A program made the translations under genes and the position numbers. DNA of 64,000 nucleotides from Mycobacteriales bacterium (GTDB lineage: Bacteria > Actinomycetota > Actinomycetes > Mycobacteriales > QHCD01). The notes below the pieces were generated by a model. It did not search any database and was not told the DNA's origin. It was given only the letters and a program-made list of their open reading frames with translations. Positions 10,095 to 63,726 of the stretch are shown one piece after another (position 1 is the first letter of the stretch; the number at the start of each line of letters is the position of its first letter). Location: NCBI GenBank assembly GCA_038253135.1, contig JBBSHJ010000004.1:801-64800 (forward strand), read 5' to 3'.

Positions 10095-10100
10095 CGCAGC

Positions 10101-11862: not shown

Positions 11863-11919
11863 AAGCAAAGGCGGGCAACCGCCGGAGAGACATAAGCGGT
11901 TCATTGTTCGTTGGCCGGG

Positions 11920-11949: not shown

Positions 11950-12140
11950 GAACGGGCCAGAAACACTGGTGACCTGCATCGAGCTGAGCAGCCCGCTGCG
12001 ATCGGGGCGCCGTACCGCGAAGCACCCGACCGACCGCAGGACCCACACGAGAGCCACAAACCCCAGACCACAGACCGCCGCAGACACGTAACCCACACCA
12101 CATACCCCAAGAAAAATTGACACAGAGGAGATGGCTAGAG

Positions 12141-12392: not shown

Positions 12393-12507
12393 CCCATCCG
12401 CGTTCTCGCGCCGACCGGATCGGCACCGGCTCACCCGAACGGCCCGGACCTGAAACCGGTTCGGGCCGTTTCGTGTCGTACGCCGAGCGGCGAGCGACCG
12501 CGTCGGC

Positions 12508-33064: not shown

Positions 33065-33547
33065 ATGACGACCGAGACCGGCCTGACCGCTGCGGGCGCC
33101 AACCTGGCACCCGTGCCGGACGATCTGCGGCCCGACTACCCCACCCGGCTGCCGGGCCGCCTGGCCCGCATCATCGCCACACCACGGCCGATCACCGACG
33201 GCGAGCGGCGTACGGCGCGCGACTCGATCGTCGACGTCGTGTGCATGCTGATCGCCGCCGGCATCGGCGCGGTGCTCTGGAACGGCCTCCTGCCGCACTT
33301 CGGGTCCGGTCCGCTGCAATGGATCGATCTCGGGACGGGCGTGCTCTGCGTGGCCGTAACCTGGTTCCGGCGCCGCTGGCCGATCCCCATCGCCATCATC
33401 ACCACACTGGCCACGACCTTCTCCAGCGCGGCCGTGGGCGCGGGAATCGTGGCCATGTTCACCGTCGGCGTGCACCGGCGGTTCGGCCCGCTCGCCGCGG
33501 TGGCGGTGCTGGGCATCCTGTGCGGCGTCCCCTACGACACGATCGTC
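33065..33547 (+). pseudogene. Membrane sensor segment of a NarL-type histidine-kinase-like gene, 3' part missing
   Basis: ATG 33065. TM-rich WFRRRWPIPIAIITTLATTF..AMFTVGVHRR resembles HK N-termini. No H-box or ATPase follows. The frame runs stop-less through a repeat into the antisense of the sulfatase. Confidence 0.4.
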
Positions 33548-34905: not shown

Positions 34906-34939
34906 CGCGTCTCGCCTCCCCACTCACCGACTTCGGCCC

Positions 34940-39430: not shown

Positions 39431-39615
39431 CACCACCTCCGGATACGCTGCGCTCACCCAGCTACCCGAGGATCACACACCCGCCGCGCCTGGCCGAGCA
39501 ACCGAGCCACCGCGGCCGGTGCACGACTCGTCGCCCGCATCGCGGTCGGCTCGCGACACGCAGCCGGCGGGGATCGATTGCGGAGCACCGGAGATCGCAT
39601 GACAGGCTCGTCACC

Positions 39616-48628: not shown

Positions 48629-48629
48629 A

Positions 48630-48785
48630 CCGCCTCCGCGGAAAAGCGTGCGTCGGCGGTGCCCATAGCCGCCTCCGCGGAAAAGCATGCGTCGGCGGTG
48701 CCCATAGCCGCCTCCGCGGAAAAGCGTGCGTCGGCGGTGCCCATAGCCGCCTCCGCGGAAAAGCATGCGTCGGCGGTGCTCACGC
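48630..48785. repeat. 4 x 39-bp tandem repeat (CCGCCTCCGCGGAAAAGC[G/A]TGCGTCGGCGGTGCCCATAG)
   Basis: Counted directly. Units at 48630, 48669, 48708 and 48747 (last unit diverges at its end). G/A alternates at unit position 19. Fills the whole gap between the two ABC genes. Confidence 0.95.
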
Positions 48786-50654
48786 GGGGGACCCCTCATC
48801 GGGAGCGTCGAGGTTGCGCACCACGACGGAGCGGTACGCCGGGTCGTCGCGCAGCAGTTCGTCGTGCGTGCCGTCGGCAGCCGCCCGGCCACCGTCGAGC
48901 AGGACGATCCGGTCGGCGTGATGCAGCAGCAGCGGCGAAACCGACATCACGATCGTCGTACGACCGCGCCGGTACCCCGCCAGCCGCGCCGCGATCATGG
49001 CCTCGGTGTGCGCGTCGACGGCCGACGTCGGCTCGACCAACACCAGCACCTCGGGGTCCCGCGCCAGCGCCCGGGCCAGCACCAGCCGTTGCCGCTGACC
49101 GCCGGACAGGCCGCGGCCCCGCTCGTCGATGCGGCCCTGCCAGCCACCGGGCATCGCCTCGAAGACGTCCTCGGCCGCGGCCGTGTGCAGCGCCGCCTCG
49201 GCCTGCCGGCGGGTGAGGATGCCGTGCGGGTCGACGAGGTCCTGCAACGTGCCGGAGAAGACCATCGCACCGGTGTCGGAGACCACGATCTGCTCGCGTA
49301 CGTCGCGCAGCGCGGCATCGGCGAGGTCGACACCGCCGACCCGCACCCCCCACGGACCGGCCGCGAGCGCCTCGTCCGCTCGGGCGATTTCCGCTTGCGC
49401 GGCAAGGCGCTTCTCGTGTTCACGCTTGGCGGCCGCGCCGGCGACCTTGTCGTCGACTGCGGGCGCGGAGTGCGCGGCCGGGGGGAGGTAGCGCCCGACC
49501 CGGTCGGCGAGCGCGGCCGTCTCGTCTGGCGCGGCGCTCACCACCATCGTCAGCTCACCCGGCTGCGCGACGAAGCCGGTGGCCTCGTCCGTGATGACCG
49601 CCCCGGTAGGCAGCGGGCGTGGCTGCTGCGGGTCGTGCCACGGCGGTGTGAGCCCGAGCGCGGCGATCGCCTTGCGGGCCGAGACCATGCCGCGGGTCCA
49701 TTTCTGGAAGAACTGGAAGAAGTTGGTCACCGGGCCGGTCAGGAACATGGCGTAGCCCAGCAACGCCACCAGCTGGCCGGTGGAGATCCGGCCGTGGAGC
49801 ACGTCCCGGGCGCCGAGCCACATCAGCAGGACCAGAAAGATCCCCGGCAGCAGGACCGCGACGCCGTCGGTGATGGACTGCCAGATGCCGGCGGCCACGC
49901 CGGCCGAGCGCACCCGTTGCGACTGGCCGGCGTAGTTGCGGCCGAACGTCGACTCGCCGCCGATGCCGCGCAGGATCCGCAGGCCCGCGACGATGTCCGT
50001 GGCCATTCCGGTCAGCTCGGAGTTGCGGCTGCGCTCGACCGCCTGGCGGCGCTCCATCGGCTTGAGCAGCGGAAAGGCCATCGCCACCAGCAGCGGCGGG
50101 CCGACCAGCACGAGCAGGCCGAGCTTGACCGACGTACCGAGCACGATCGCGCTCACGGTCAGGAAGGCGACCAGGGACGCCAGCCCGCGGCCGGTCACCT
50201 CGATCAGCGACCCGAAGGTGTCCGAGTCCGACGACGAGACGCTCAGGACCTCACCGGTCGGCAGCCGCCGCCCCTGGATGTGGCCGAGCTGCGCGGTCTT
50301 GCGGTTGACCAGCTTCGTCGTGCCGTAGAGGGCGATCAGCCAGCCGCGCACGGCCATGGTGTGGAAGAGCATGCCGCACATCGCGCCGGCCATCGTCACG
50401 ATGAGCAGCGCCAGACCCCAGAAGAGCGTGCCCGACGTGGAGCCGGGCAGGATCCCCTTGTCGATCGCCTTGCCGAGCAGGAAGGGACCCACCGTCGGCG
50501 GGATATACCAAAGGACACCGGCAACCGCGTTGCCGGTGAGCACGTCGGCCTGATCGCGCAGCAACCAACGGAGAAACGCACCCGGCGTACGGGTATCAGG
50601 CTCTGCGGTGGCGGATGCGCTGTAGGCGTCGACTACAGGAGGGAAGTCGCGCAT
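48780..50654 (-). CDS. ABC exporter fused permease/ATPase, degenerate Walker A, canonical signature
   Basis: ATG 50654 (MRDFPPVVD...). LSGGQRQR present. The Walker A position reads [10 protein letters not shown], and Walker B reads LVLVEPTS. ~45-aa insertion after the degenerate P-loop. Confidence 0.85.
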
Positions 50655-50876
50655 AGCTGTACCAATGTACGAAGCGCGGCGGCCCGCTGCGACCGAATTC
50701 CGGGCGCTGTGTGCGATCCCACCCTGTGCCGACGAGCACTCCGATGCATCGTGTCCATCAGGATGAGGCCCCTGGCATTGACCGAGCGCGGCCCGGCCGA
50801 GCCGACGGTCAGCTTGGCCCGCCCGCTGACCGCGACCGCGGGTGCCCTCTTCCGTGGGCAACGCGCCGGCCCGACG

Positions 50877-50904
50877 CCATGCGCGCGCGCACGCGCGCGC
50901 ACGC
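50877..50904. repeat. 28-nt perfect alternating pyrimidine-purine tract with CGCGCGCGCA x2
   Basis: Read directly: CATGCGCGCGCGCACGCGCGCGCACGCG. Confidence 0.9.
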
Positions 50905-51344
50905 GAGGACGGTGCGCGAGGGTGACCTGATCGTCGAGCGTCCCGACCAGCGGGCAGGTGGTGCTCGACCAGCCCGGACAGCGCGGCCGCGGTCCGCCAG
51001 CAGCCGAAGCCGAGCAGGCCGAGCCCGACGGCGCACAGCACGATGTCCCAGCCGTACGGCGAGTCGCTGAGGACGAGGTTCACCGACGCCGTGGTCAGGA
51101 TCACCAGCGCCAACCCGGCGCAGACCAGGCCGATGCACGGGCCGTCCCTGCTGCGTCTCGCCCCGTCCCTGGCCACGAGCACCTCTGCGACCGGAACCAT
51201 GTAGCCACCGTCGGCGCGCACCGCTTGCATGGCGGACGCTCCCACCCCGGGCACTGCCGAGACCGACCTCATCGGCTCAGTCCGGCCGGGAAGCTACCAG
51301 TACGCCACTCGGATCCGGCGCGAACCGACGGCCGGACGGAGGTG

Positions 51345-51668: not shown

Positions 51669-52631
51669 TCAGCCCAGCACGCGGCGTACGAACGCCAGCT
51701 TGGCCACCTCGTGGCGGGCCGCGCCGCCCTCGTGACCGTTGTAGGGGTAGACCTCGATCGCCTTGTCCGTGCTCGCATGGTGGTTGTACGCCGCGTAGAC
51801 GGTGGATGGCGGGCAGACCATGTCCATCAGGCCGACCGAGTAGAGGGTCGGGGCCCCGGCGTGGGCGGCGAAGTTGACCCCGTCGAAGTAGGACAGTGTG
51901 GTGAAGACCCGCTCGATGTCCTCGGGCCGGGTGCGGCAGTAGGCCTGGATCTCGGAGTACGGCGCCGTGTCGACGATCTCGGTGGCCCGGCGGTAGTGGC
52001 ACAGGAACGGTACGTCGGGCATCGAGCCGGCCAGCCCGTCGACGAGACCGGCCGCGGCCAGGGTGAGCCCGCCGCCCTGGCTGCCGCCGGCGACCACGAT
52101 CCTGTCCGGATCGACGTCCGGGTGCGCGCGGGCCGTCTCCACCGCGCGGACGGCGTCGCTCATCAGCCGGCGGTAGTAGTAGACGTCCTTGTCCAGGATC
52201 CCGTCGGTCATGTAGCCGGCGACGTGCGGGCCGGAAGCGTCGGCGTGCGCGTCCCCGGTGTCGCCGCCGCCCTGCCCGCGGGTGTCCATCAGCAGGTGCG
52301 CGTAACCGGCCGCGGCGTACATCAGGTACTGGTGCACCAGGCCCCGCCCGCCGTTGTACCCGTGATACTGCACGACGCAGCCGAGCGTCCCGGCGCGGTG
52401 CGCGGGCAGCAAGAGCCAGCCCTTGACCGGCTCGCCGTTCCAGCCGGCGAAGCTCACGTCAAAGGTCTCGATCTCGGTCAGCCCGGCGTCGTACGGCGTG
52501 AACGTCGCGCCGAGGTCGTGCTCGCGTACCGAGGCCAGCGTTGCGGCCCAGAAAGCGTCATAGTCGGGCTGCTCGTCTCGTGTGGGCTGGTAGGTCTCCA
52601 GCTCGGCCCGAGCGAAGTCGAAAAGTGCCAT
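51669..52631 (-). CDS. CE7 acetyl esterase (acetylxylan esterase / cephalosporin-C deacetylase family)
   Basis: VQYHGYNGGRG, TRGQGG, VAGGSQGGGL (nucleophile elbow), C-terminal YNGHEGG. Confidence 0.85.
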   Translation of the reverse strand: MALFDFARAELETYQPTRDEQPDYDAFWAATLASVREHDLGATFTPYDAGLTEIETFDVSFAGWNGEPVKGWLLLPAHRAGTLGCVVQYHGYNGGRGLVHQYLMYAAAGYAHLLMDTRGQGGGDTGDAHADASGPHVAGYMTDGILDKDVYYYRRLMSDAVRAVETARAHPDVDPDRIVVAGGSQGGGLTLAAAGLVDGLAGSMPDVPFLCHYRRATEIVDTAPYSEIQAYCRTRPEDIERVFTTLSYFDGVNFAAHAGAPTLYSVGLMDMVCPPSTVYAAYNHHASTDKAIEVYPYNGHEGGAARHEVAKLAFVRRVLG

Positions 52632-52653
52632 TCCCGCGGTCTCCTTCGTGCGG

Positions 52654-54123
52654 TCAGCGGCTCGTCGCCGCTGCGGTCCGTGAACCAGGGATCAATGCTC
52701 CGGCCCGGCGGCCGGGCACCAACGCGTCACCGTCGACATACCCCTCCGGCCGGGCGCGGAGCTCGTCGACGAGCTTGCCCCGCCACTGCCCGAGTCGATC
52801 GGCGGAGCTGGGCTGGCGGGCGAGGTCGTGCAATTCCTGCGGATCCGCGCGCAGGTCGAAGAGCTGCTCGATCCCGGTGCCGCTGCACCAGATGTATTTC
52901 TCCTTGCCGTCGGTGAGGAAATGCACCGACTGGTCCCCGAGGTGCAGGTGCTCGCCGTGGAGGTGCTCCCGCCATGCCGTCGCCTCGCCGCGGGCCAGCG
53001 GCAAAATGCTCCTCCCGTCGACGGTCTCCGGGATACCGATGCCGGCGGCGTCGAGCAGGGTCGGCATCACATCGCGCAACTCGACGACCGAGTCGTCGAC
53101 GACGCCGGCCGGTATTCCTGGGCCGGATATCGCGACCGGAATCCGCGCGGAACCTTCGTACGGCGCGCATTTGCGGTAGAGGTGGTGATCGCCCATCAGC
53201 TCGCCGTGATCGGCGACGAACATGATCACGGTGTTTCCTCGGGTCGCACCCTGGGCCGCGAGCTCCTCGAAGAGCCGCTCGAGCTGCTGGTCGATGTGCG
53301 ACATGTGGCCGTAGTAGCCGGCCCGGGCTCGCTGCAGCAGTCGCGGATCGTACGTCGCCACGGGTGACTCGGGTGAGCGCGGATTGTCGTAATCCGCCCA
53401 GACGTCGAGCCAATCACCGACGGGAGGTTCGGGCATCTCCTGGTCGATGTACTGCTCAAATGCCCACAGCGGCGGGTCGTACGGCGGGTGCGGGCGGTGG
53501 AACGACGCGAACAGGAAGAACGGCATCGAGCGGTCGCGCTCGCGCAGGAACTGGATCGACCGGGTGACCACCCAGGTCGTCGGATGCACGTATTCGGGTT
53601 TGTCCCAGGGCCGGGCGACGACCGAATTGCAGTTGAGGCCGTGCTCGGCGTAGTCGGCGTCGTACCCGACCTGCACGCGCAGCCAAGCCAGGTAGTCATC
53701 GACCTCCGTCAGATCGTCGTACGTCGATCGCGTGAAATGGGTGTAGCCGTCGTGCAGCGCGACATCGTCGAAGCCCATCGGGTTGCGCTCAGGGAAGACG
53801 TGCATCTTCCCCACCGCCTGCGTCTGATAGCCGGCGGCACCGAACTCCCCGGCGAGCGGGTGCGGGTAATCCCACGGAACGCCGTCCTGATAGCCGACCC
53901 GGCCGGTGCGCTCCTGGCTCTGCCCGGTCAGCAAGGATGCGCGGGCCGGCACACACGACGGCGTCGCGGAATACGCGCGATCGAACCGCGTGCCCCGCTC
54001 GAGCCAGCCGTCCAGATAGGGCGTCATGACCACCGGGTGCCCGGCCGCGGAAAAGCAGTCCCCGCGCCATTGATCGACGCAGATCAGGACCACGTTCGGC
54101 GCGGCGGCCGGCTCGGGGGGCAT
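52654..54123 (-). CDS. Cys-type sulfatase
   Basis: NVVLICVDQWRGD, TPSCVPARASLLTGQ (CxPxR), FVADHGE. Confidence 0.85.
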   Translation of the reverse strand: MPPEPAAAPNVVLICVDQWRGDCFSAAGHPVVMTPYLDGWLERGTRFDRAYSATPSCVPARASLLTGQSQERTGRVGYQDGVPWDYPHPLAGEFGAAGYQTQAVGKMHVFPERNPMGFDDVALHDGYTHFTRSTYDDLTEVDDYLAWLRVQVGYDADYAEHGLNCNSVVARPWDKPEYVHPTTWVVTRSIQFLRERDRSMPFFLFASFHRPHPPYDPPLWAFEQYIDQEMPEPPVGDWLDVWADYDNPRSPESPVATYDPRLLQRARAGYYGHMSHIDQQLERLFEELAAQGATRGNTVIMFVADHGELMGDHHLYRKCAPYEGSARIPVAISGPGIPAGVVDDSVVELRDVMPTLLDAAGIGIPETVDGRSILPLARGEATAWREHLHGEHLHLGDQSVHFLTDGKEKYIWCSGTGIEQLFDLRADPQELHDLARQPSSADRLGQWRGKLVDELRARPEGYVDGDALVPGRRAGALIPGSRTAAATSR

Positions 54124-54126
54124 GGA

Positions 54127-55236
54127 CTAGATGACCTCGAGGCCGTCGCGGTCCGGGAGGGCCGGGAATTCGGCGTGTGGCTCGAGCTGGTACCAGTACG
54201 CCGTCGAGGCAATGTCGTCCTGCAGCGGCAGGTAGCGCCCGCCGGAGCGCCAGCCGATCGCCTGGATCGTGACCTTGGCGTCCGCGGCGAACCGCACCGG
54301 ATCCTTGATATGCCAACGATACATGCCGAAGCGGGCCTGCGACGCGATCACAGCCCCCTTGTTCGGGAGGATCGCCTGCGGGAAGCCGAGGTACTGCGTG
54401 GAGTAGGGCGCGTAGACGAGCTCCCCGGCGTCGTCCTTCTCGTAGAAGCACCAGGCCCCTCCGAAGTAGTCCTCGGTGCCGGTGCCGCAGATGGTCGGGA
54501 ACTCCTCGCCGCCCTGGCCGGCATCGCCGTCGAGGAAGAACTTGATCTCGCCCTCGCCCCACCAGCCGTTGTTGTTCGAGCCCCAGGCGAGGTAGGTGCC
54601 GACGTAATGGCCGCGGCCGCGGACGCCGTCGAGGATGGTGTGGTCGGTCTTGTATTCCAGCGGGTTGTCGCGGCGCCACTGGGCGTGCAGGTAGGCCGCG
54701 TCGTCGGGAATGGCGCGGAGCTCGTAGTCGACGGAATAATACAGCGACACGCTGTCCTCGTCCCAGAGGTTTTCCACGGTGATCCGGGCCGACCGGCGGA
54801 ACGGCATCGGCCAGTAGGAATTGAAGCCGCCGAGCGGGTTGACGGCGATCGGCTCGGAGGAGACGCGGCACGGCACGGTCCAGCCGTTGCAGAAGAAGTC
54901 GCCGAGCGGAGTCTCGATCGACGGCGTGTCCTCACCGTCCCAGTAGACCCTCAGCACCAGCCGGCGCCACCACTCGTAGTGAATGGTCAGCCAGACGTGC
55001 GTGATCTGCCCCGGGCCGTCGATCTCGGCGAGCGTGAGGGTCTCGCCGGCCGGGACGTGGGTGTAGGGCGAGACCTTCCAGCCCCGGCCCAGCTCGCGCG
55101 CGGCATGCGACGCGGTGCCCTCGCTCGCCAGGCCACCGCCTCCCTTGGCGCCGGTGGGATTCTCCGCGCTGATCGACCGGCTCTGCGCGTCGACCAGGCG
55201 GGTCAGGTCGGACAGGCCCGGGCCTTCAACCGTCAT
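54127..55236 (-). CDS. DUF2961 / GH172 family protein (paralogue B)
   Basis: ISAENPTG, GPGQITHVWLT, WWRRLVLRVYWDG, PLGDFFCNGW, ICGTGTEDYFGGAW. Confidence 0.8.
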   Translation of the reverse strand: MTVEGPGLSDLTRLVDAQSRSISAENPTGAKGGGGLASEGTASHAARELGRGWKVSPYTHVPAGETLTLAEIDGPGQITHVWLTIHYEWWRRLVLRVYWDGEDTPSIETPLGDFFCNGWTVPCRVSSEPIAVNPLGGFNSYWPMPFRRSARITVENLWDEDSVSLYYSVDYELRAIPDDAAYLHAQWRRDNPLEYKTDHTILDGVRGRGHYVGTYLAWGSNNNGWWGEGEIKFFLDGDAGQGGEEFPTICGTGTEDYFGGAWCFYEKDDAGELVYAPYSTQYLGFPQAILPNKGAVIASQARFGMYRWHIKDPVRFAADAKVTIQAIGWRSGGRYLPLQDDIASTAYWYQLEPHAEFPALPDRDGLEVI

Positions 55237-55278
55237 GCTCTTCCTCCGTGCTCAGAAACTTCGTGCTCGGAAAACGAT

Positions 55279-55292
55279 TCAGCGCCGCCACG
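55279..55292. promoter_or_regulatory. Operator-like motif gGAAAACGATTCAg
   Basis: Exact 12-mer shared with 59911-59922. 44 nt upstream of the GH172-B start. Confidence 0.4.
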
Positions 55293-55308
55293 CTACCGGC
55301 CGACCGCG

Positions 55309-56382
55309 TCAGATCACTTCCAGCCCGTCGCGGTCGGGAAGTTCGGGGTACGGCGCGGGCTCGCCCCTCTGGTACCACCACGCGGTCGAGGCGAGGTCGT
55401 CCCGCAACGGGAGATATCGCCCGCCCGAGCGCCAGCCCAGCGCCTGCACGGTGACCTTGAGATCCTCGGCAAAGCGCACCGGGTCCTGCAGGTGCCACCG
55501 GTACATCCCGAGTCGGCGCTGCGATGCGTGGATCGACTCGCCGCCGAGGGCCTGCACGAAGCCCAGGTACGCCGTGGTGAACGTACTGTAGACGCCGCCG
55601 GCCTCCTCGAATCCCCAGGCGCCGCCGAAGTAGTCCTCGGTGCCGGTGCCGCAGATCGTCGGGAAATCCTTATCACCGTCGAGGAAGAACTTCAGCTCAC
55701 CCTCCCCCCACCACCCGCTGCTGTTGGATCCCCAGGCCAGGTAGGTGCCGACGAAATGCCCACGACCGCGCACCCCGTCGAGGATCACGTGGTCGGTCCT
55801 GTCCGGCAGCGGGTTGGAGCGTCGCCACTGGGCGTGCAGGTAGGCCGCGTCGTCCGCGACCTCGTCGAGCTCGTAGTCGACCTGGTAGAAGAATCCCTCG
55901 ACATCTTCCTCCCAGAGATTCTCCACCGTGATGCGCGCCGACCTGCGAAAGGGCATCGGCCAGTAGGAATTGAAGCCGCCCTTGGGATTGACGGCCACCG
56001 GGACCGAGACCACGTTGGCCGGCTGGCACCAGCCGTTGCAGAAGAAATCACCCAAGGGGACTTCGATGGCCGGCCGGTCAGCCCCGTCCCAGTAGAACCG
56101 GAGCACGAGCCGACGCCACCAGGCCGGATCCACGGTGATCCAGATGTGGGTGATGGTGCCGGGTCCCTCGATCTCGGCCATCGAATAGGTCGACCCGGCC
56201 TCGACCGTCGCGCACGGCGCGACCTTCCAGGTTTGTCCAAGCTGGCGGGCGGCGCGGGCACCGACGCCTTCGATGGCGCGGCCGCCGCCGCCCTTGTCCC
56301 CCGTCGGATTCTCGGCGTTGACGGCACGAGAGCGCCCCGCCGTGACCCTCGTCAGGTCGGAGAGCGGGGAGAGGATCGACAC
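55309..56382 (-). CDS. DUF2961 / GH172 family protein (paralogue A)
   Basis: Same blocks as paralogue B (VNAENPTG, GPGTITHIWIT, PLGDFFCNGW, ICGTGTEDYFGGAW). Confidence 0.8.
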   Translation of the reverse strand: MSILSPLSDLTRVTAGRSRAVNAENPTGDKGGGGRAIEGVGARAARQLGQTWKVAPCATVEAGSTYSMAEIEGPGTITHIWITVDPAWWRRLVLRFYWDGADRPAIEVPLGDFFCNGWCQPANVVSVPVAVNPKGGFNSYWPMPFRRSARITVENLWEEDVEGFFYQVDYELDEVADDAAYLHAQWRRSNPLPDRTDHVILDGVRGRGHFVGTYLAWGSNSSGWWGEGELKFFLDGDKDFPTICGTGTEDYFGGAWGFEEAGGVYSTFTTAYLGFVQALGGESIHASQRRLGMYRWHLQDPVRFAEDLKVTVQALGWRSGGRYLPLRDDLASTAWWYQRGEPAPYPELPDRDGLEVI

Positions 56383-56389
56383 GCGGGGC

Positions 56390-57394
56390 TCAACGATCCC
56401 GGGAGAAGGCGGCGTCGAAGGCGGTGGTCGGCTTGTCGAAGACCAGCTTCTTCAGGAACTCCAGCGACTCCGGCGCCCCGCGCAGCCGGTCCATGCCGGC
56501 GTCCTCCCACTCGATCGACAGCGGGCCGTCGTACCCGATCTCGTTGAGCATCCGGAAGATCCCCTCCCACGGCACGTCGCCGTGCCCGACGGAGACGAAA
56601 TCCCAGCCCCGCCGCGGGTCGGACCACGGCAGGTGCGATCCGAGCCGCCCGTTGCGGCCGTTGAGCTGGCGCACCGATTCCTTGCAGTGCACGTTGTAGA
56701 TGCGGTCCTGGAAATCCATCAGGTAGCCGACCGGGTCGAGGTCCTGCCACACGAAATGGCTCGGGTCGAAATTGAGCCCGAAGCCGGGACGGTTGCCGAT
56801 CGCGTCGAGCGTGCGGCGCGCGGTCCAGTAGTCGTAGGCGATCTCCGACGGGTGCACCTCGAGCGCGAATCTCACCCCGACCTCGTCGAAGACGTCGATA
56901 ATGGGATTCCACCGGTCGGCGAAGTCCTGGTAGCCGGCCGCGACCATTTCGCCGGGGGTGGGCGGGAACATCGCGACGGTGTACCAGATCGACGACCCGG
57001 TGAAGCCGGTCACGGTCTTGACGCCCATCTTGGCGGCGGCCCGGGCGGTGTCCTTCATCCGCTCGGCGGCCCGTCGCCGGACCCCCTCGGGATCGCCGTC
57101 TCCCCAGACCTCGGGCGGCACGATGTCCTTGTGCCGCGCGTCGATCGGGTTGTCGCACACGGCCTGGCCGACGAGGTGGTTGGAGATCGCCCAGCACTTG
57201 AGGTTGTATTTCTCCAGCATGGACTTCTTGTCGGCGACGTAATTGTCGTCGGCGAGCGCCTTGTCGACCTCGAAATGGTCGCCCCAGGCGGCGATTTCCA
57301 GGCCGTCGAAACCCCAGGACGACACCAGCTTGCAGACCTCCTCGAACGGAAGGTCGGCCCACTGGCCGGTGAAGAGGGTAAAGGGTCGAGCCAT
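56390..57394 (-). CDS. Xylose-isomerase-like TIM-barrel protein (sugar phosphate isomerase/epimerase family)
   Basis: 334 aa. [36 protein letters not shown] family that commonly pairs with Gfo/Idh/MocA oxidoreductases. Confidence 0.8.
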
Positions 57395-57412
57395 GGCGAT
57401 TTCTCCTTCTCC

Positions 57413-58576
57413 TCAGCGCACGCCGAGGATGTGGTCGATGGCCAGCTGGTCGAGGCGTTCGTAGTGCATCGCGCGCTCGCCGCGCTTGTCGATGTCGTAC
57501 GACGTGTCGTCGCGCAGCGCGGCCAGCGGCTCATCGGGATCGAGTGTGGGCCTGGCCAACTCGGGCACCCGCGCCGCGGCCAGCGCCTCCTGCACCTCGG
57601 GGTCGGCGCGATATTTCGTCGCCTTTTCCTTGAGGATGAGATAGGTCCGCATGCAGCCGGCGGCCGATTCCCACACACCGCTGAAATCCTCGGTGCGCAT
57701 CGGCTTGTAATCGAAATGCCGCGGGCCGTCGTACCCCGCCGACTCGAGCAGGTCCACGAGGAAGAACGAGCTCTTGAGGTCGGCCGCCCCGAAGCGCAGA
57801 TCCTGGTCGTATTTCAGCCCGTGCTGACCGTTGAGGTCGATGTGGAAGAGCTTGCCGGCCCAGAGGGTCTGGGCGATGCCGTGTACGACATTGAGTCCCG
57901 CCATGGTCTCGTGCCCGACCTCCGGATTGAGACCGACCATGTCCGGGCGTTCGAGGGAGTGGATGAAGGCCAGCGCGTGCCCCACCGTCGGCAGGAAGAT
58001 ATCGCCGCGGGGCTCGTTCGGCTTCGGCTCCAGCGCCAGCCGGATGTCGTAGCCCTGCTCGGTGATGTAGCCGCAAAGTGCGTCGATCGCCTCCTTGTAG
58101 CGGTCAAGAGCGGCGCGAACATCCGTCGCGGCATCGCTCTCGGCCCCTTCGCGGCCGCCCCAGCAGACGTAGGTCGTGGCGCCCAGCTCGGCGGCGAGGT
58201 CGATGTTGCGCAGCGTCTTGCCGATCGCATAGCGGCGTACGTCGCGGTCGTTGGCGGTGAAGGCGCCGTCCTTGAAGACCGGGTGGAAAAAGAGGTTGGT
58301 CGTCATCATCGGGACCGTCATTCCGGTCTCGGTGAGCGCGGCGCGGAACCGGTCGAGGATCTTCTGCCGCTCGGCGGCGTCGGCGTCGATCGGGATCAGG
58401 TCGTTGTCGTGGAAGCTCACGCCCGCGGCGCCGAGCTCGGACAAGCGGTGCACGGCCTCGACCGGGTCGAGGGGCGGCCGGATCGCCGTGCCGAAGGGGT
58501 CGACGCCCTGCCAGCCGACGGTCCACAGGCCGAAGGTGAAATTGTCCGACCGCGTCGGGTTCCACGTGTCGGTCAT
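57413..58576 (-). CDS. xylA: Xylose isomerase (class I, actinobacterial type)
   Basis: [53 protein letters not shown]. 387 aa. ATGA overlap with the upstream gene. Confidence 0.95.
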
Positions 58577-59748
58577 ACCTTCGCCACCTCGGTCCAGGTC
58601 GAGTCGGCACCGGCGCTGCGCTCGACGGCGGAAAGGACGAGCTGCACCTGCAGCCCGTCGGCGAAGCTCGGAGCGGGATCCGCGGACGTGCCGATCGCCT
58701 CGAGCAGGTCGCGCACCTCGTGGGTGAAGGTGTGCTCGTAGCCGATGATGTGTCCGGCCGGCCACCAGGCGGCCATGTACGGGTGCTCGGGCTCGGTCAC
58801 GAGAATGCGACGGAAACCCGCTTCCGGTGCGGGCAGTGCGGCGTCGAAGAACTCGAGCTCGTCGAGCCGCTCCAGGTCGAAGACGGCCGAGCCGCCGTCG
58901 CCGTTGATCTCCACGCGCAGCCCGTTCTTGCGGCCCTGGGCGAACCGGGTCGCCTCGAATGTCCCGATCGCGCCGCCGTCGAAGCGGGCGGTGAAGAGCG
59001 CCGCGTCGTCGACGGTCACCGCGCCTCTGGCGGTCGCCGAGCCGGTCTCGTTCAGGCCGCCGGTCGACTCCGACCCGGGCAGCGGCCGTTCCTTGATGAA
59101 GGTCTCGGTGATCGCGGAGACGCCGGCGATGCACTGGCCGGTGACGAACTGCGTGAGGTCGACGATGTGCGCGCCGAGGTCGCCGAGCGCGCCGGAGCCG
59201 GCCTTGTCCTTCTGCAGCCGCCAGGCGAGCGGGAATTCCGGGTCGATGATCCAGTCCTGCAGGTACTGCGCCCGCACGTGCCGGATGGTGCCGAGCCGGC
59301 CGTCGGCGATGAGCTGGCGCAGGTAGGCGACGGCCGGGACGCGCCGGTAGTTGAAGGCGACCATGCTGCGTACGCCGTCGGCCCGGGCCTTGTCCGCGGC
59401 GGCGACCATCGCCCGCGCCTCGTCGACGGTGTTGGCGAGCGGCTTCTCGCACAGCACGTGCTTGCCGGCTTGCAACGCGGCGATGGAGATCTCGGCGTGG
59501 CTGTCACCGGGCGTGCAGACGTCGACGAGGTCGACGTCGTCGCGGGCGATCAGCGCGTGCCAGTCGGTCTCGGTGGCGGCATAGCCGAACTTCTTCGCCG
59601 CGGTCGCGACGGCCTCGGCGTTGCGGCCGCAAACCGCCGCCAGCTCGGCCTGCGCCGGCAGGTCGAAGAAGTGATTGGCCGTCCGCCAGGCATGCGAGTG
59701 CACCGCCCCCATGAAGGCGTATCCGACGAGTCCGACTCCGACGCGCAT
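58573..59748 (-). CDS. Gfo/Idh/MocA family NAD(P)-dependent oxidoreductase
   Basis: [14 protein letters not shown] Rossmann N-terminus, VLCEKPLA (EKP motif). Confidence 0.85.
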
Positions 59749-59907
59749 ACGGTGATCCCCTCTGGGCGGTTCGCAGGTTGAGGTCCGCTCGATTCGATCA
59801 CGGAGCGGCCGCCGGCCGCCAGCGTCCCGGCCCGACTTCGATCGCCGCTTCCGGACGTTGCAATGCCCTGGCCGGGCTGCCTCGCGACCTGCCGCCTTCT
59901 TCCGTCG

Positions 59908-59923
59908 TGAGAAAACGATTCAC
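59908..59923. promoter_or_regulatory. Operator-like motif TGAGAAAACGATTCAC
   Basis: Contains the same 12-mer GAAAACGATTCA as 55280-55291. Imperfect palindrome cGTGA-N9-TCACg. ~163 nt upstream of the oxidoreductase start. Confidence 0.4.
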
Positions 59924-59955
59924 GGGTACGGCGGAAGGCGGCAGGTCGGGGTGAG

Positions 59956-59985
59956 GTTCACGGGGCGGGGGTTCACGGGGCGGGG
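59956..59985. repeat. 2 x 15-bp tandem GTTCACGGGGCGGGG (four G4-5 runs)
   Basis: Read directly. Lies immediately 3' of the sulfatase stop (59989-59991). Confidence 0.85.
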
Positions 59986-59988
59986 GTG

Positions 59989-61418
59989 TCACCAGAAGGC
60001 TTCCCGGCCCGCCGAGCGGTCTTCGGCGGCGACCAGCACGTCGAGCAGCCGGGCGAGCAGGTCGGCCTTGACCGCCGCGCAGGCGGGGTCGTCCCACCGG
60101 TTGACCAGCTCGTCCGGATCGTCGGCGAGGTCATAGAGCTCGCCGGTCGCCGGCCGTGCCGAGGCCGGCGGGCCGTGGTGCGCGACGAGCTTGTGGGTCT
60201 CGGTCGCCAGCATCGTGACGTGCGCGGCCGGATCGAGCGGGTGCCCGCTGTCGCGGTATTCGCAGACGGCGTACCCGGCTCCCGGTCCGGCGATGACGTC
60301 GCGACCGGTCATCCGGTCCGGCGCGCCCAACCCGGCTGCGGCCAGCAGCGTCGTCGGCAGGTCGAGCAGGGACGCGATCTCGGGGCGTCGTACGCCGGCC
60401 GGCACGTGGCCCGGCCAGCGCAGGATCAGCGGCACCCGGGTCGCGCCCTCGTAGCAGAGCGGGCCCTTCAGCAGCTGGCCGTGATCGCCGAGCATCTCGC
60501 CGTGATCGCTGGTGAAGACGACGAGGGTGTCCTCGGCCAGGTCGAGTCGATCGAGGCTCTGCAGGATCCGCCCGACCTGGTCGTCGATGAGGTCGACCAT
60601 GGCGTAGTAGCGGGCGGTGAATGCGCGGACCTGCTCGGCGGTGTAGTCGAGGAAACCCGGGAGCGCCCCGCCGTAGGTCTCCCGCGACGTCTCGTCCTGG
60701 ATCGCCGGCTTGTGATCGGCGGGGGCGTTCGGCCGGATCGGGGCGGGGAGGTCGGCGTCGCGGTAGCGCTCGACGTACTCGCGCGGAGCGACGAACGGGT
60801 GGTGCGGGTCGAAGATGTTGGCCCAGCAGAAGAACGGCCGGCCCGCCGGCCGGTTCTCGAGGATGTCGATGACCTCGTCCGCGACCCAGGTGGTGAAGTG
60901 CGCCTGGGTGGGCATGTCGTCGTAGGGCCGGGCGTCGAAACCGCCCGGGGCCGGCGGCGGGTCGGCCCACAGCTCGGGATGTTCGCGCTGCAGCCAGCCG
61001 TGGTAGGCGTTCTCCGGCGATCGGTGCGCCGGGTCGTGCGCCCAGGCATAGTGCTCGATGCCGTCGTCGTACCGTGTCTCGGTCCGCCCGCCGTACGCCG
61101 CCGCGAGGTGCATCTTGCCGGCGAGGGCGGTGAAGTAGCCGGCGTCGGCGAGCTGTTTGCTGAAGACCGGCTGGCCCGGCGGCAAAGCGACCCCGTTGGC
61201 CCACAGGCCGTGCCCATGCGGCAGGACTCCGGTCATCATGCTGGCCCGGGCCGGCGCACAGACGGGGCTGGCGGTGTAGCAGCGCTCGAAGAGCGTGCCG
61301 GCGCGGCCAGCCGGTCGATCGCCGGTGTGTGCACGGACGGGTTTCCGTAGGCCCCGAGGGTGTCGTAGCGCTGTTGGTCGGTGCAGACGAGCAGGATGTT
61401 CGGTCGACCGTCGGGCAT
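59989..61418 (-). pseudogene. Cys-type sulfatase interrupted by a single-nt frameshift near 61297-61307
   Basis: N-terminus MPDGRPNILLVCTDQQRYDTLGAYGNPSVHTPAIDRLA is in the frame of track ORF 61236..61562. The rest (GTLFERCYTASPVCAPARASMMTG...) is in the frame of 59989..61452. Span is 1430 nt, not a multiple of 3. Its ATG shares a base with the xylB stop (TGATG). Confidence 0.75.
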
Positions 61419-62851
61419 CAGAAATCCTTGCGTAGCAAGGGAAGCGCGGCATCGCGGACCTGCGCGTACGCCGTCCTGGTGACGCTGTTCAATGACGCTG
61501 TCGGCAGCACGGCCGAGGCCACCGGCCACTCGGGTGGCTCGGCCCCGCCACGTAGGGCCCACGCTGCCTGCCGGGCCGCGCCGCGGGCGACGTACTCCCC
61601 CGGCTCAGGGACGGCGAGCGGCACCCCGAAGAGGGCCGGGGCGAGAGCCTGCACCGCTGCCGATCGGGCCGCCCCGCCGATCAGCACCGCGCGGCGGGTC
61701 ACGACTCCCTGCGCCCGCAGCGCGTCGAGCCCGTCGGCCAGACCGCACAGCATTCCCTCCGTCGCGGCGCGGGCGTAGTGCGCCGGCGTGGACGTCGCGC
61801 GGGTGAGCCCGTAGGCGAGGCCGGTCGCCGCCGGGAGGTCGGGGGTGCGCTCGCCGTCGAGGTACGGGAGGACGACGAGCCCGTCACCATGGGGTGCCTC
61901 GGCGGCCAGCCGGTCGAACGCGGCGATGTCGAGGCCGAGCAGCGCGGCAGCCGCGTCGAGCACCCGGGCGGCGTTGAGCGTGCAGACGAGCGGCAGGAAA
62001 CGGCCGGTGGCGTCGGCGAATCCGGCGACCAGCCCGCTGGGGTCTGCGGTCGGGGCGTCGGCGACCGCGAAGACGGTGCCGCTGGTGCCGAGCGAGATCG
62101 CGACGTCGCCGGGCGCGAGCCCGAGCCCCAGCGCGGCGGCCATGTTGTCGCCCGTGCCGGCGGCGAGGGCGATCCCGGCGGGCACCGCGCCGTCGGGCGT
62201 CGTACCGACCGCCTCCGCCGGGTCGGCGACTCTCGGCACGGCGAGCTCGCGGCGGGCGGCCGCGGCGAGCAGGTCGGCGCGGTAGCTGCCGTCGGCGGGC
62301 GACCAGTATCCGGTGCCCGAGGCATCACCGCGGTCCGTGGTGAGGGCCGAGATGTCGACCGGGCCGCCGCCGGCGCGCAGCCGGGCGGTGAGCCAGTCGT
62401 GCGGCAATGCGACGGCGGCGGTACGGCGTACCGTTTCCGGCTCGTGGTCGGCGACCCACCGCAACTTGGTGACGGTGAAGCTGGCGAGCGGGACCGAACC
62501 GGTCGCGGCCGCCCACGCATCGGGCCCGCCTCGCTCGTCGACCAGGGCCGTCGCGGCGGCGGCGGAGCGGGTGTCGTTCCACAGCAGCGCGTCGCGCACG
62601 ACGGCACCGTGCGCTTCGAGCAGGACCATGCCGTGCTGCTGGCCGCCGACCGCGATGGCCTCGACGCCGTCCAGGATGCCGTCCGAAGCGGCCAGAAAGG
62701 CCCGCCACCAGATCTCCGGATCGATCTCGGAGGTGTCGGGGTGGGACGCCTTGCCCTCCCGCAAGATCGCGCCGGTGTCGGCATCGCAGACGACGACCTT
62801 CGTGGACTGGGTCGAGCAGTCGACCCCGGCGACGAGCGGCATGCGGCCCAT
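61418..62851 (-). CDS. xylB: Xylulokinase (FGGY family)
   Basis: VAGVDCSTQSTKVVV, GGQQHGMV, LLWNDTR, GTGDNMAAALG. Start at ATG 62851 or 62842. Confidence 0.88.
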   Translation of the reverse strand: MGRMPLVAGVDCSTQSTKVVVCDADTGAILREGKASHPDTSEIDPEIWWRAFLAASDGILDGVEAIAVGGQQHGMVLLEAHGAVVRDALLWNDTRSAAAATALVDERGGPDAWAAATGSVPLASFTVTKLRWVADHEPETVRRTAAVALPHDWLTARLRAGGGPVDISALTTDRGDASGTGYWSPADGSYRADLLAAAARRELAVPRVADPAEAVGTTPDGAVPAGIALAAGTGDNMAAALGLGLAPGDVAISLGTSGTVFAVADAPTADPSGLVAGFADATGRFLPLVCTLNAARVLDAAAALLGLDIAAFDRLAAEAPHGDGLVVLPYLDGERTPDLPAATGLAYGLTRATSTPAHYARAATEGMLCGLADGLDALRAQGVVTRRAVLIGGAARSAAVQALAPALFGVPLAVPEPGEYVARGAARQAAWALRGGAEPPEWPVASAVLPTASLNSVTRTAYAQVRDAALPLLRKDF

Positions 62852-63127: not shown

Positions 63128-63346
63128 GTGTACCTTCCGGACGAGCTCGCGGCGGAGGCCAAGAAGGCGGGCTTGAACCTGTCGGCGGTGACGCAGGAAG
63201 CCGTCAGACGAAGCCTTGCCTCGCGCTCCACCGATAACTGGCTGGCCGCACTTGCGACGACGACACCTTCTGAGCGAGTGCCTCATGATCGTGCCCTGGA
63301 GGCACTTGACGCCGCGCGGGACGAGCCTCCAACGCATCATGGCTGA
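63128..63346 (+). CDS. Ribbon-helix-helix antitoxin (VapB-like)
   Basis: VYLPDELAAEAKKAGLNLSAVTQEAVRRSL is a typical RHH antitoxin N-terminus. 72 aa. Confidence 0.65.
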   Translation: MYLPDELAAEAKKAGLNLSAVTQEAVRRSLASRSTDNWLAALATTTPSERVPHDRALEALDAARDEPPTHHG

Positions 63347-63726
63347 AGCTGTCGGTCGATGCGTCCGCCCTTGTCGATCTTCTGCTGGGCAACGAACTAG
63401 GTGGCGCTGTTCGCCGGCGGATTGCCGGCCACACCCTGCATGCACCCGCTCACATCGATGCCGAAGTTCTCTCAGCGTTGGGGCGGTTACACCGGGCCGG
63501 CCACCTTGAGGCCGACAGTGTCGAGTCTAAGCTTCACGAACTCGCCGCAGCTCCCATCCAGCGCCACCCGGTAGCCGATCTTCTCCTCGGGACCTGGGCC
63601 CGACGCCACCAGCTACGGCTGGTCGACGCGCTGTACGTGCAGCTGGCCGTATCCCGGAACGCGCCGCTGGTCACCACCGACCGTCGACTGCACGTCGCGC
63701 CCTCCGCAGACATCGTGGACACCTGA
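63343..63726 (+). CDS. PIN-domain toxin (VapC-like), non-canonical start
   Basis: My translation upstream of track ORF 63478..63726 in the same frame: LKLSVDASALVDLLLG..HAPAHIDAEV..LVDALYVQLA..LVTTDRRL (PIN acidic positions). The only initiator candidate at full length is CTG 63343, overlapping the antitoxin stop (CTGA). Confidence 0.6.
   Translation: MKLSVDASALVDLLLGNELGGAVRRRIAGHTLHAPAHIDAEVLSALGRLHRAGHLEADSVESKLHELAAAPIQRHPVADLLLGTWARRHQLRLVDALYVQLAVSRNAPLVTTDRRLHVAPSADIVDT

Follow-up and report, generated by a model that had tools for sequence, protein, structure and literature searches.

A composite actinobacterial gene array joining xylose isomerase and xylulokinase genes with GH172 glycosidase, sulfatase and CE7 esterase genes

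D-arabinan utilization loci, such as the PUL of Microbacterium arabinogalactanolyticum that encodes ExoMA1 (PDB 8IC8) and PUL42 of Dysgonomonas gadei, are among the closest known systems to the locus described here. They combine an exo-furanosidase with an aldose-ketose isomerase and an FGGY kinase, leading to pentose phosphate, and the exo-alpha-D-arabinofuranosidase specificity of ExoMA1 was shown experimentally (PMC10509167). In one Microbacterium locus (L078), GH172 is accompanied by an isomerase resembling FucI and by an FGGY kinase. Classical actinobacterial xylose genes comprise xylA, xylB and a ROK-type xylR, while levoglucosan and other 3-keto-glycoside pathways (LgdA, LgdB1, LgdB2, LgdC) pair a Gfo/Idh/MocA dehydrogenase with a PF01261 TIM-barrel protein. 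We found no characterised cluster that matched our locus and no literature description of its gene combination, in agreement with an earlier sequence-only reading, which had called it a composite and knew of no such described system.

The locus spans positions 51669-62851 of a 64,000-nucleotide stretch of DNA that was analysed as a whole (the window), and consists of nine tightly packed minus-strand genes of an uncultured soil actinobacterium (Table 1). All evidence on it comes from MAG and metagenome sequence. Families were assigned to the nine ORFs with Pfam and NCBIfam profile searches, which bore out every family call of the sequence-only reading. Recomputing the junctions also reproduced the spacing it gave, with overlaps of 1-4 nt, gaps of at most 72 bp and a single 240-bp exception. 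This last gap (59749-59988) separates sulf1 from Gfo. The sulf1 start codon and the xylB stop codon have one base in common (1-nt overlap, TGATG), and xylA starts on the Gfo stop codon (4-nt ATGA overlap); the remaining spacers measure 18 nt (xylA/TIM), 7 nt (TIM/GH172a), 72 nt (GH172a/GH172b), 3 nt (GH172b/sulf2) and 22 nt (sulf2/CE7). By inspection, none of the nine products carries an N-terminal signal sequence, and all look cytoplasmic, the same location as that of ExoMA1 and of CE7 enzymes.

Table 1. Genes and intergenic elements of the locus (window coordinates)
Feature	Position	Strand	Description
xylB	61418..62851	-	FGGY-family xylulokinase; FGGY_N and FGGY_C domains
sulf1	59989..61418	-	Cys-type S1 sulfatase, CAPAR motif, frameshifted
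Hairpin	59885..59948	-	GC-rich; candidate terminator or processing site
Gfo proximal upstream region	59749..59840	-	Holds GCTCCGTGATCGAATC block; aligns with L139 xylB-Gfo spacer
Gfo/Idh/MocA oxidoreductase (Gfo)	58573..59748	-	NAD-dependent sugar oxidoreductase, 4H3V type (Pfam)
xylA	57413..58576	-	Class-I xylose isomerase; TIGR02631
TIM-barrel protein (TIM)	56390..57394	-	Xylose-isomerase-like; AP_endonuc_2; SCO6571 (PDB 2ZDS) orthologue
GH172a	55309..56382	-	Predicted ExoMA1-like retaining exo-alpha-D-furanosidase; DUF2961
GH172b	54127..55236	-	GH172a paralogue; DUF2961
sulf2	52654..54123	-	Intact Cys-type S1 sulfatase, CVPAR motif
CE7 acetyl esterase	51669..52631	-	Acetyl xylan esterase / cephalosporin-C deacetylase type; AXE1
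12-mer TGAATCGTTTTC	55270..55281	-	GH172a-GH172b spacer

The locus matches that of a MAG labelled 'Mycobacteriales bacterium' (L001) at 98-100% amino acid identity, and its gene order is kept in three other contigs at 64-92%. Two of these, from related MAGs (L085 and L088), read xylB-ROK-Gfo-xylA-TIM-GH172-CE7 and have no sulfatase; the third, from a closer relative (L139), reads xylB-Gfo-xylA-TIM-GH172-GH172-sulfatase-CE7. In all three, an xylB orthologue (69-72% identity) heads the cluster and CE7 is the last gene. Such conservation suggests an arrangement beyond chance. In comparison with classical xylose genes, the ROK regulator that L085 and L088 hold between xylB and Gfo is gone from the window, where tblastn detected no remnant of it, and the window lineage carries the additional sulfatase gene sulf1 at this former ROK position. 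Judging from these arrangements, the cluster is one assembled in steps: ROK-Gfo-TIM would have come first, with xylB, CE7, a single GH172 and xylA, the last placed inside the Gfo-TIM pair, added next; the cluster would then have shed ROK and acquired sulf2 along with another GH172, and sulf1 would have been gained last.

We favour, at somewhat under even confidence, a cytoplasmic operon of this uncultured actinobacterial lineage that finishes the breakdown of glycosides and funnels the pentoses, on a substrate that we infer from the gene content. Short oligosaccharides or small glycosides would be imported by a transporter encoded elsewhere. CE7 would take off O-acetyl groups, and sulf2, matured by a formylglycine-generating enzyme (FGE), would remove sulfate esters together with sulf1 where the latter is intact. 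The two retaining GH172 exo-enzymes, with their differing -1-subsite residues, would cleave off terminal alpha-D-furanosyl residues, of D-arabinofuranose type; Gfo, TIM and XylA together would turn the pentose into D-xylulose, and XylB would phosphorylate this to xylulose-5-phosphate. The sequence-only reading had proposed a module for a sulfated, acetylated furanosyl or pentosyl glycan feeding xylulose-5-phosphate, which is supported in part, as nothing indicates a polysaccharide. Pfam scans of most of the other window ORFs revealed no endo-acting enzyme, with neither GH183 (DUF4185) nor GH116 found, and no sugar importer, ROK or LacI regulator, or FGE, a lack that also counts against the operon that we favour. 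Because signal peptides, an endo-enzyme and an importer are all missing, imported oligosaccharides or small glycosides are likelier than a polysaccharide. The earlier statement that no transporter, regulator or FGE is present thus stands for importers, for these regulators and for FGE, but not for transporters at large, since two exporter-type ABC half-transporters lie immediately downstream of the cluster (46664-51293).

With classical xylose genes, the locus shares a true class-I xylA (TIGR02631 score 652, cut-off 447; about 620 bits to Streptomyces xylose isomerase structures) and an xylB that barely passes its model (TIGR01312 score 392, cut-off 380) and has a second possible start at 62842. 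It departs from them in the position of xylA, flanked by Gfo and TIM, and in the presence of GH172, CE7 and sulfatase genes that run in the same direction within the array. Gfo is nearest to Kribbella 4H3V (573 bits) and TIM to 2ZDS (584 bits; AP_endonuc_2 at 153 bits). TIM proteins are 75-93% identical among Actinobacteria, the closest named relatives being those of Motilibacter, Amycolatopsis and Streptomyces, and the Gfo-TIM pair is widespread in this phylum without xylA, often with a ROK regulator. The pair appears to be an ancient and strongly conserved actinobacterial module into which xylA was inserted later.

The sequence-only reading had taken this pair as the mark of oxidative (3-keto) glycoside cleavage. 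In such a route, Gfo would oxidise C3 of a glycoside, for example a xyloside, and TIM would carry out elimination or hydration to give xylose for XylA and XylB, with GH172, CE7 and the sulfatases merely stripping decorations that block the way. Both proteins are detectably homologous to the corresponding enzymes, Gfo to levoglucosan dehydrogenase (LGDH; 315 bits to 6A3F, and its top NCBIfam model) and TIM to 2-hydroxy-3-keto-glucal hydratase (147 bits to 8RO4), and the 334-aa length of TIM fits the LgdB2 class of about 325 residues (PMC10066097). The wedging of xylA between the two genes, with the same 4-nt overlap and 18-nt gap in four contigs, and the lack of a beta-xylosidase gene in the cluster also point this way. 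However, Gfo falls far below the LGDH equivalog cut-off (NF052479 score 373 against 650), the locus has no LgdB1-type eliminase (about 275 aa), no LgdC partner and no second reductase, and the 4H3V and 2ZDS proteins have no assigned function. As the pair is common without xylA, it may natively act on something other than a xyloside, and we consider this route unlikely. The oxidoreductase and the TIM-barrel protein would nevertheless matter for the operon that we favour: to our knowledge, D-arabinose is not a substrate of xylose isomerase, so that the GH172 product would have to enter the XylA and XylB steps through the chemistry that we infer for Gfo and TIM.

Like the D-arabinan loci, the window encodes a cytoplasmic GH172 enzyme of the exo-alpha-D-furanosidase type, about 60% similar to ExoMA1 (GH172a against 8IC8, E=8e-138), and it likewise leads to a pentose phosphate by way of an aldose-ketose isomerase and an FGGY kinase, but it has two paralogues (66-68% mutual identity; DUF2961 at 319 bits in GH172a and 312 bits in GH172b). 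The window differs further in its class-I xylose isomerase, which is not FucI-like, in having sulfatases, CE7 and the Gfo-TIM pair, and in lacking a GH183 endo-arabinanase, a GH116 beta-D-arabinofuranosidase, an ABC importer and a LacI regulator. Both paralogues keep the Glu residues identified as catalytic in alphaFFase1 (PMC8605356), and GH172a shows the WWGEGE, GTGTEDYF and AWGF motifs. The residue that sets arabinofuranoside versus fructofuranoside specificity, however, differs: Asn253 of ExoMA1 is replaced by Gly in GH172a and by Cys in GH172b (AWCFYE), and alpha-D-arabinofuranosidase specificity is not to be assumed for either. Such partners are rare elsewhere, which counts against the operon that we favour: in 80 GH172 loci of other species, xylA occurred in one, a sulfatase within 10 kb in seven and CE7 in none.

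These enzymes might instead trim turnover fragments of the cell's own D-arabinan, in an arabinogalactan-bearing member of the Mycobacteriales that salvages D-arabinose to xylulose-5-phosphate via D-arabinitol and D-xylulose. A D-arabinose to D-arabinitol to D-xylulose route has reportedly been found in Mycobacterium smegmatis, and the xylB that it needs is present. In favour of wall recycling are also the MAG label, the likeness of both GH172s to ExoMA1 and the occurrence of GH172 homologues in acid-fast bacteria, among them NocGH172 of Nocardia, an active D-arabinofuranosidase (PMC10115798). The label may, however, denote a GTDB-style order broad enough to include lineages that lack arabinan, and the relatives of TIM, the lack of GH183 and GH116 among the window ORFs scanned, and the replaced Asn253 all argue against this reading. 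Moreover, we know of no description of sulfate or acetyl as D-arabinan decorations, and we regard wall recycling as very improbable. The CE7 protein has a full-length AXE1 domain (352 bits; 351 bits to TM0077, PDB 1VLQ) with all three signature motifs (RGQ, GGSQGG, HE), like TM0077 and Bacillus CAH, but its linkage is with GH172 and sulfatase genes, not with genes for beta-xylosidase or xylanase.

The two sulfatases are only 30-32% identical. The frameshift that the sequence-only reading had noticed in sulf1 is real: the true N-terminus (MPDGRPNILLVCTDQQRYD...), starting at 61418, lies in a different frame, and one base added at about 61303/61304 yields an intact protein of 476 aa. The sibling MAG L001 has this base and an intact gene, whereas an independent Logan assembly (contig L134) carries the same 1-nt deletion as the window; the frameshift is therefore polymorphic among strains. 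sulf1 is thus a polymorphic pseudogene, and dispensable; its best PDB matches are 7OZ8 (181 bits) and an S1_30 enzyme (158 bits). By contrast, sulf2 is intact and, from profile and motif matches, of the PRK13759 arylsulfatase or S1_46-like type (NF010322 score 636, cut-off 481). Its closest described enzymes are the Mn-arylsulfatase EfAS (9KOQ, 373 bits) and the S1_46 GlcNAc-3-O-sulfatase BT1918 (315 bits to 7OZ8, presumably this protein according to the deposit list). It shares with them the CxPxR, DQ..D, GKMH and DHG motifs, and its GRVGY motif resembles that described for S1_46, but these scores are modest and sulf2 is predicted to be cytoplasmic, inside a pentose/furanosidase operon.

Does sulf2 belong functionally to its neighbours? 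It could be a passenger, as sulf1 could: a xylose-type operon (xylB, Gfo, xylA, TIM, GH172, CE7) would have accreted sulfatases that serve sulfur scavenging or aryl-sulfate use in a sulfatase-rich genome and are simply transcribed along. Three cytoplasmic Cys-type sulfatases are encoded in the 64-kb window, the third (33532-34923) with unrelated surroundings, sulf1 is absent from L085, L088 and L139, where its slot holds ROK or nothing, and the sulf1-like gene of a relative sits elsewhere in that genome. Furthermore, sulf2 exceeds the arylsulfatase cut-off, its nearest solved relative is promiscuous, and none of 45 metagenomic loci of sulf2 relatives contained any other gene of the cluster; the closest (72% identity) lies beside an MFS transporter, an AraC regulator and a FAD aromatic monooxygenase, a neighbourhood that looks arylsulfatase-like. 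For these last two reasons, a sulfated glycan is not established. Against mere accretion, a passenger would be expected to decay or sit at the operon end, yet sulf2 is intact in the same slot between GH172b and CE7, at 3-6 nt spacing, in two lineages about 20% apart in protein sequence. Its L139 orthologue is 80% identical (6-nt gap), comparable to the neighbours xylA (83%) and CE7 (73%), and adjoins a GH172b orthologue of 83% identity; sulf2 would have arrived alongside the second, C-type GH172. We hold uncoupled accretion to be somewhat unlikely. The linkage of sulfatase, GH172 and xylAB recurs for sulf2 but not for sulf1, which is confined to the window lineage, and the retention of sulf2 at one position in a related genome makes the cluster a real lead to a putative decorated-sugar substrate.

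The array is probably transcribed as two units, xylB-sulf1 and Gfo-xylA-TIM-GH172a-GH172b-sulf2-CE7, because a hairpin follows sulf1 and a conserved block then precedes Gfo. This strong hairpin lies about 40 nt past the sulf1 stop codon, has a perfect 15-bp outer stem (MFE z-score -4.8; 0 of 200 shuffles fold equally well), and occupies the part of the gap that is missing in L139. The remaining proximal region is, from its alignment, likely the native promoter/operator of the Gfo-to-CE7 unit. The 12-mer TGAATCGTTTTC occurs without mismatch just twice in the window, each time between genes and in coding-strand orientation; the second copy, at 59911-59922, falls within the hairpin loop, and a version with two mismatches occurs in the GH172a-GH172b spacer of L139.

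The locus consists of nine co-oriented ORFs on the minus strand (51669-62851) in a window with a GC content of about 70%, and Pfam together with NCBIfam bore out the family that the sequence-only reading had named for each gene. When we recomputed the junctions, the spacing was as claimed there: xylB and sulf1 overlap by 1 nt and Gfo and xylA by 4 nt, and the remaining gaps are 3 to 72 nt long, except for a single one of 240 bp (59749-59988). The xylA product scores above the TIGR02631 equivalog cut-off and thus qualifies as a class-I xylose isomerase, and the xylB product lies above its own cut-off too, but marginally, so that it might be a related pentulose kinase instead of a xylulokinase. 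All signature motifs of the CE7 family were found in the esterase (RGQ at residue 118, GGSQGG at 182, HE at 300). No N-terminus resembles a signal peptide on inspection by eye, and all nine products appear to be cytoplasmic.

Genes of the locus, with the family evidence for each
Gene	Position	Strand	Family evidence
xylB	61418-62851	-	TIGR01312 392.2 vs equivalog cut-off 380.25, marginal
sulf1	59989-61418	-	Sulfatase domain, CAPAR motif
Gfo/Idh/MocA (Gfo)	58573-59748	-	oxidoreductase domains (Pfam)
xylA, class I	57413-58576	-	TIGR02631 652 vs cut-off 447; about 620 bits to Streptomyces xylose isomerases
TIM barrel (TIM)	56390-57394	-	AP_endonuc_2
GH172a	55309-56382	-	DUF2961 (PF11175), 319 bits
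GH172b	54127-55236	-	DUF2961 (PF11175), 312 bits
sulf2	52654-54123	-	CVPAR motif; NF010322 arylsulfatase 636 vs 481
CE7	51669-52631	-	AXE1 (PF05448) 352 bits; 351 bits to TM0077 (1VLQ)

No characterised cluster matches this combination and a literature search found no paper that combines these families, in agreement with the earlier view that it is not a described system; what comes nearest is a planctomycete fucoidan PUL that includes a GH172 gene. Each component family is a known one, and the logic of the operon is conventional. The best-supported model, which we hold tentatively and place just short of probable, is removal of decorations, exo-furanosidase action and funnelling of the pentose to xylulose-5-phosphate. 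CE7 and sulf2 (and sulf1 where intact) would strip the decorations, the two GH172s would act as exo-furanosidases, Gfo, TIM and the xylose isomerase would turn the released pentose into xylulose, and XylB would phosphorylate it. With nine products that look cytoplasmic and without an endo-acting enzyme among them, an oligosaccharide or small glycoside taken up by the cell is a likelier substrate than a polymer, judging from the gene content. The locus is of value mainly as a lead to the substrate of an actinobacterial sulfatase, to GH172 specificity variants and to the function of the Gfo-TIM pair, which is of the 4H3V/2ZDS type.

The D-arabinan locus of Microbacterium shares this furanosidase-isomerase-kinase logic, but its isomerase is FucI-like. 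A D-arabinan PUL of the Microbacterium/Dysgonomonas type was rejected: Pfam scans of the remaining ORFs of the window found no GH183 (DUF4185) endo-arabinanase, GH116 beta-D-Araf-ase or ABC importer to accompany GH172, no other sugar importer, and no FGE (FGE-sulfatase domain) that could mature the sulfatases. The comparison locus from Microbacterium jejuense (L078) does carry DUF4185 and ABC permeases, and GH116 was not found among the ten ORFs scanned there.

Four architectures of the neighbourhood could be distinguished. The first, seen in several lineages, is an adjacent Gfo-TIM pair alone with a GntR or ROK regulator (L136-L138). The second, found in two MAG contigs (L085, L088) whose proteins are 64-82% identical to those of the window, has the order dnaG-x-xylB-ROK-Gfo-xylA-TIM-GH172-CE7, with no sulfatase and with Asp at the specificity position of its single GH172. 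The third belongs to a closer relative (contig L139), which reads dnaG-x-ADH-xylB-Gfo-xylA-TIM-GH172-GH172-sulfatase-CE7 and lacks both ROK and sulf1; its identities to the window are 88% (Gfo), 83% (xylA), 92% (TIM), 83% (GH172b), 80% (sulf2) and 73% (CE7). In the fourth, that of the window and a sibling MAG, there are two sulfatases, with sulf1 between xylB and Gfo. From these architectures we propose an order of build-up in which an older Gfo-TIM pair would have received xylA by insertion, GH172 and CE7 would be early additions, sulf2 would have arrived with the second GH172, and sulf1 would have come last. The series is a clear example of operon growth by insertion, and also of a regulator gene's slot becoming occupied by an enzyme gene. 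The linkage of sulfatase, GH172 and xylAB therefore recurs in relatives for sulf2 (L139), but not for sulf1. In L139 the GH172a orthologue (8832-9898) is interrupted close to the WWGEGE motif, giving two ORFs, which means either that a second accessory gene of this locus has been pseudogenised or that the assembly is wrong here.

Sulf1 is indeed frameshifted, as the sequence-only reading had it. Its true N-terminus (MPDGRPNILLVCTDQQRYD...) lies in another frame than the long ORF and starts at 61418, where it overlaps the xylB stop by a single base; when one base is inserted at about 61303/61304, a complete sulfatase of 476 aa with the motifs CAPAR, DQQRYD, GKMH and DHG is recovered. With this repair, the active-site motifs of both sulfatases are present. 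The 1-nt deletion, found in the window and in a Logan contig (L134), cuts residues 1-39, the N-terminal metal-binding segment, off the rest of the protein. The proteins of the locus are 98-100% identical to those of contig JBPCLQ010000125.1 from the sibling MAG GCA_051003115.1 ('Mycobacteriales bacterium'; L001), in which the extra base is present and sulf1 is intact, and the independent Logan assembly of run SRR24807095 carries a deletion identical to that of the window. An intact gene in the sibling MAG and the same deletion in an independent assembly point to a strain-level polymorphism, and thus to sulf1 being dispensable in at least one population.

Both GH172 paralogues have full-length domains (precomputed GH172_1st, GH172_dom and GH172_2nd), GH172a starting with GTG. 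Both carry WWGEGE and GTGTEDYF, and the catalytic residues are conserved relative to alphaFFase1, in which mutagenesis identified the nucleophile E291 (in GTEDYF), the acid/base E270 (in WWGEG) and the adjacent D292 (PMC8605356). GH172a matches ExoMA1 (PDB 8IC8; E=8e-138), an intracellular exo-alpha-D-arabinofuranosidase in which Asn253 blocks the C1 hydroxymethyl of fructofuranose and so prevents binding of alpha-D-fructofuranosides; alphaFFase1 has Gly (PMC10509167). This Asn is absent from both copies, being replaced by Gly257 in GH172a (AWGF) and Cys263 in GH172b (AWCF). Across the best 120 homologues and the two copies of the window, N is the commonest residue here (72), followed by D (20), G (19) and C (8). 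The locus holds two natural variants at the residue reported to separate arabinofuranosidase from fructofuranosidase specificity. GH172a and GH172b share only 66-68% identity, and GH172b is 83-86% identical to its orthologues elsewhere; on these identities they are distinct subtypes and no recent duplication. The kinship with ExoMA1 would also suit recycling of the cell's own arabinan, which we consider highly doubtful: it hinges on a taxonomic label that possibly spans lineages without arabinan. A D-arabinose route reportedly exists in M. smegmatis, for which our literature search turned up a review alone.

ExoMA1-like GH172s were surveyed in 80 species-level genome loci (L005-L084) from Chloroflexota, Armatimonadota, Bacillota, Actinomycetota, Bacteroidota, Verrucomicrobiota and Acidobacteriota. 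With a length of about 360 aa, the proteins share 52-68% identity and are mostly encoded by lone genes, with GH183 not nearby; such conservation across phyla is very high, given that actinobacterial D-arabinan is the sole known substrate. Partners of the present locus are scarce among them: xylA at one locus, xylB-like genes at three, Gfo at four, TIM at two and CE7 at none. A sulfatase lies within 10 kb at 7 of the 80 loci, in three Chloroflexota directly upstream of GH172. Tracking of the Gly/Cys subtype with a neighbouring sulfatase was ruled out across these 80 genomes, since the sulfatase-adjacent GH172s (L016, L027, L049) are Asn-type and subtype and adjacency are therefore uncorrelated.

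Sulf2 has the motifs CVPAR, DQWRGD, GKMH and DHG of an S1 formylglycine sulfatase. Its best solved relatives are EfAS, a promiscuous Mn-arylsulfatase (9KOQ), and 7OZ8, which comes from the set of Bacteroides sulfatase structures released alongside the study of the S1_46 enzyme BT1918 and which we infer to be BT1918; sulf2 has a GRVGY motif, like the S1_46 subfamily. We collected 45 metagenomic loci with sulf2 relatives, mostly of 41-72% identity, and at no locus did a member of the other eight gene families occur in the vicinity; the closest relative (72%) has as neighbours an MFS transporter, an AraC/DJ-1 regulator and an FAD aromatic monooxygenase. Relatives of sulf1 are 54-61% identical and come mainly from Thermomicrobiales and Chloroflexota MAGs, and a sulf1-like gene in the metagenome of a relative stands in an unrelated context. 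The window itself holds a third sulfatase, bringing the count to three in 64 kb: a cytoplasmic Cys-type enzyme without signal peptide (33532-34923, minus strand; CSPSR motif), flanked by a DUF1707 protein and an L,D-transpeptidase, in surroundings unrelated to the locus. Together with the few sulfatases near GH172 genes, these findings keep alive the alternative that the sulfatases are passengers, which we regard as possible if rather unlikely; the recurrence of sulf2 in L139 speaks for a genuine link. Returning to decoration removal, the fixed slot of a sulfatase between furanosidase and acetyl esterase, in an operon ended by a xylulokinase, is a testable clue to a substrate. To our knowledge, actinobacterial type-I sulfatases are mostly without known substrates. 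Sulfatases related to sulf1/sulf2 adjoin FAD-dependent aromatic monooxygenases in L016 (Caldilineaceae; 8242-13515, in the order sulfatase-GH172-FAD monooxygenase-glucokinase) and in locus L089 (6927-11108), and these neighbours hint at sulfated aryl glycosides as a possible substrate class.

The TIM protein and SCO6571 (PDB 2ZDS, 584 bits) are orthologues, and TIM is 75-93% identical across many Actinobacteria; its second-best match is a 2-hydroxy-3-keto-glucal hydratase (147 bits). Literature searches on SCO6571 and the hydratase name yielded nothing useful. In two distant actinobacterial genera, Motilibacter (L086) and Streptomyces (L087), at 2.8-11 kb, the TIM gene directly follows an ebo-like cluster (inositol-1-P-synthase-like, UbiA, EboA, TatD, TIM and phosphodiesterase), with sugar ABC transporter genes in the neighbourhood, joined by Gfo and ROK in the former and ThuA in the latter. 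Gfo scores 573 bits to Kribbella 4H3V and 315 bits to levoglucosan dehydrogenase. Matches of this kind would be expected if the core performed oxidative 3-keto cleavage, which we find distinctly unlikely; the only PF01261 protein of the locus besides the xylose isomerase has 334 aa, and there is no second Gfo gene. The levoglucosan pathway was rejected, as Gfo reaches 373 with NF052479 (equivalog cut-off 650) and an LgdB1-type eliminase (about 275 aa) is absent. Pairs of the 4H3V/2ZDS type are widespread and have solved structures, and the xylose isomerase beside this one narrows the search for their function. As a more specific and very improbable proposal, sulf2 and the Cys-type GH172b would be a dedicated pair for a sulfated alpha-D-pentofuranoside, with Gfo-xylA-TIM as a new route to D-xylulose. 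The units would be sulfated D-arabinofuranosyl, or keto-furanosyl such as D-xylulofuranosyl, on an as yet undescribed oligosaccharide or small glycoside. If true, a cytoplasmic sulfatase from an actinobacterium would gain a physiological substrate, and family GH172 a new specificity.

In the 240-bp gap, a tandem direct repeat directly after the sulf1 stop (CCCCGCCCCGTGAAC x2, about 59955-59985, minus strand) precedes a strong hairpin in the distal part (59885-59948; outer stem 15 bp, z=-4.8), and the proximal 90 bp or so of the gap are conserved with the xylB-Gfo spacer of L139. This layout fits a candidate terminator or processing site downstream of sulf1 and, beyond it, a putative native promoter of the Gfo-to-CE7 unit. 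A sigma-70 consensus scan returned no promoter in the locus, a result that is uninformative for a 70% GC actinobacterium. The 12-mer TGAATCGTTTTC has exactly two copies in the window, both intergenic: one in the hairpin loop upstream of Gfo (59911-59922) and one in the GH172a-GH172b spacer (55270-55281, minus strand), with a 2-mismatch version in the matching spacer of L139. Because it is missing from L085 and L088, we rejected it as a conserved operator. A classical xyl operon with an adjacent ROK XylR was likewise rejected, ROK being found in L085 and L088 but not in the window; tblastn with the L088 ROK detected no remnant in the gap or the rest of the window (best E=0.65).

Wider synteny is broken in the window, the relatives having dnaG upstream. 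Divergent from xylB lies a toxin-antitoxin pair, a CcdA-like antitoxin and a PIN toxin (about 63128-63726, plus strand; coordinates derived from L001 3036-3254 and 2656-3039), and L139 has a PhdYeFM/PIN pair directly after CE7, so that both lineages have toxin-antitoxin genes bordering the cluster. CE7 is followed on the same strand by two tandem exporter-type ABC half-transporters (ABC_membrane + ABC_tran; 46664-51293), separated from it by a 113-aa ORF without family match (L001 annotation). Farther on, an ORF of about 1,990 aa (39241-45225, plus strand) fuses biotin carboxylase, biotinyl carrier, ACC_central and carboxyltransferase domains; its product is a single-chain acyl-CoA carboxylase, a form unusual in bacteria.
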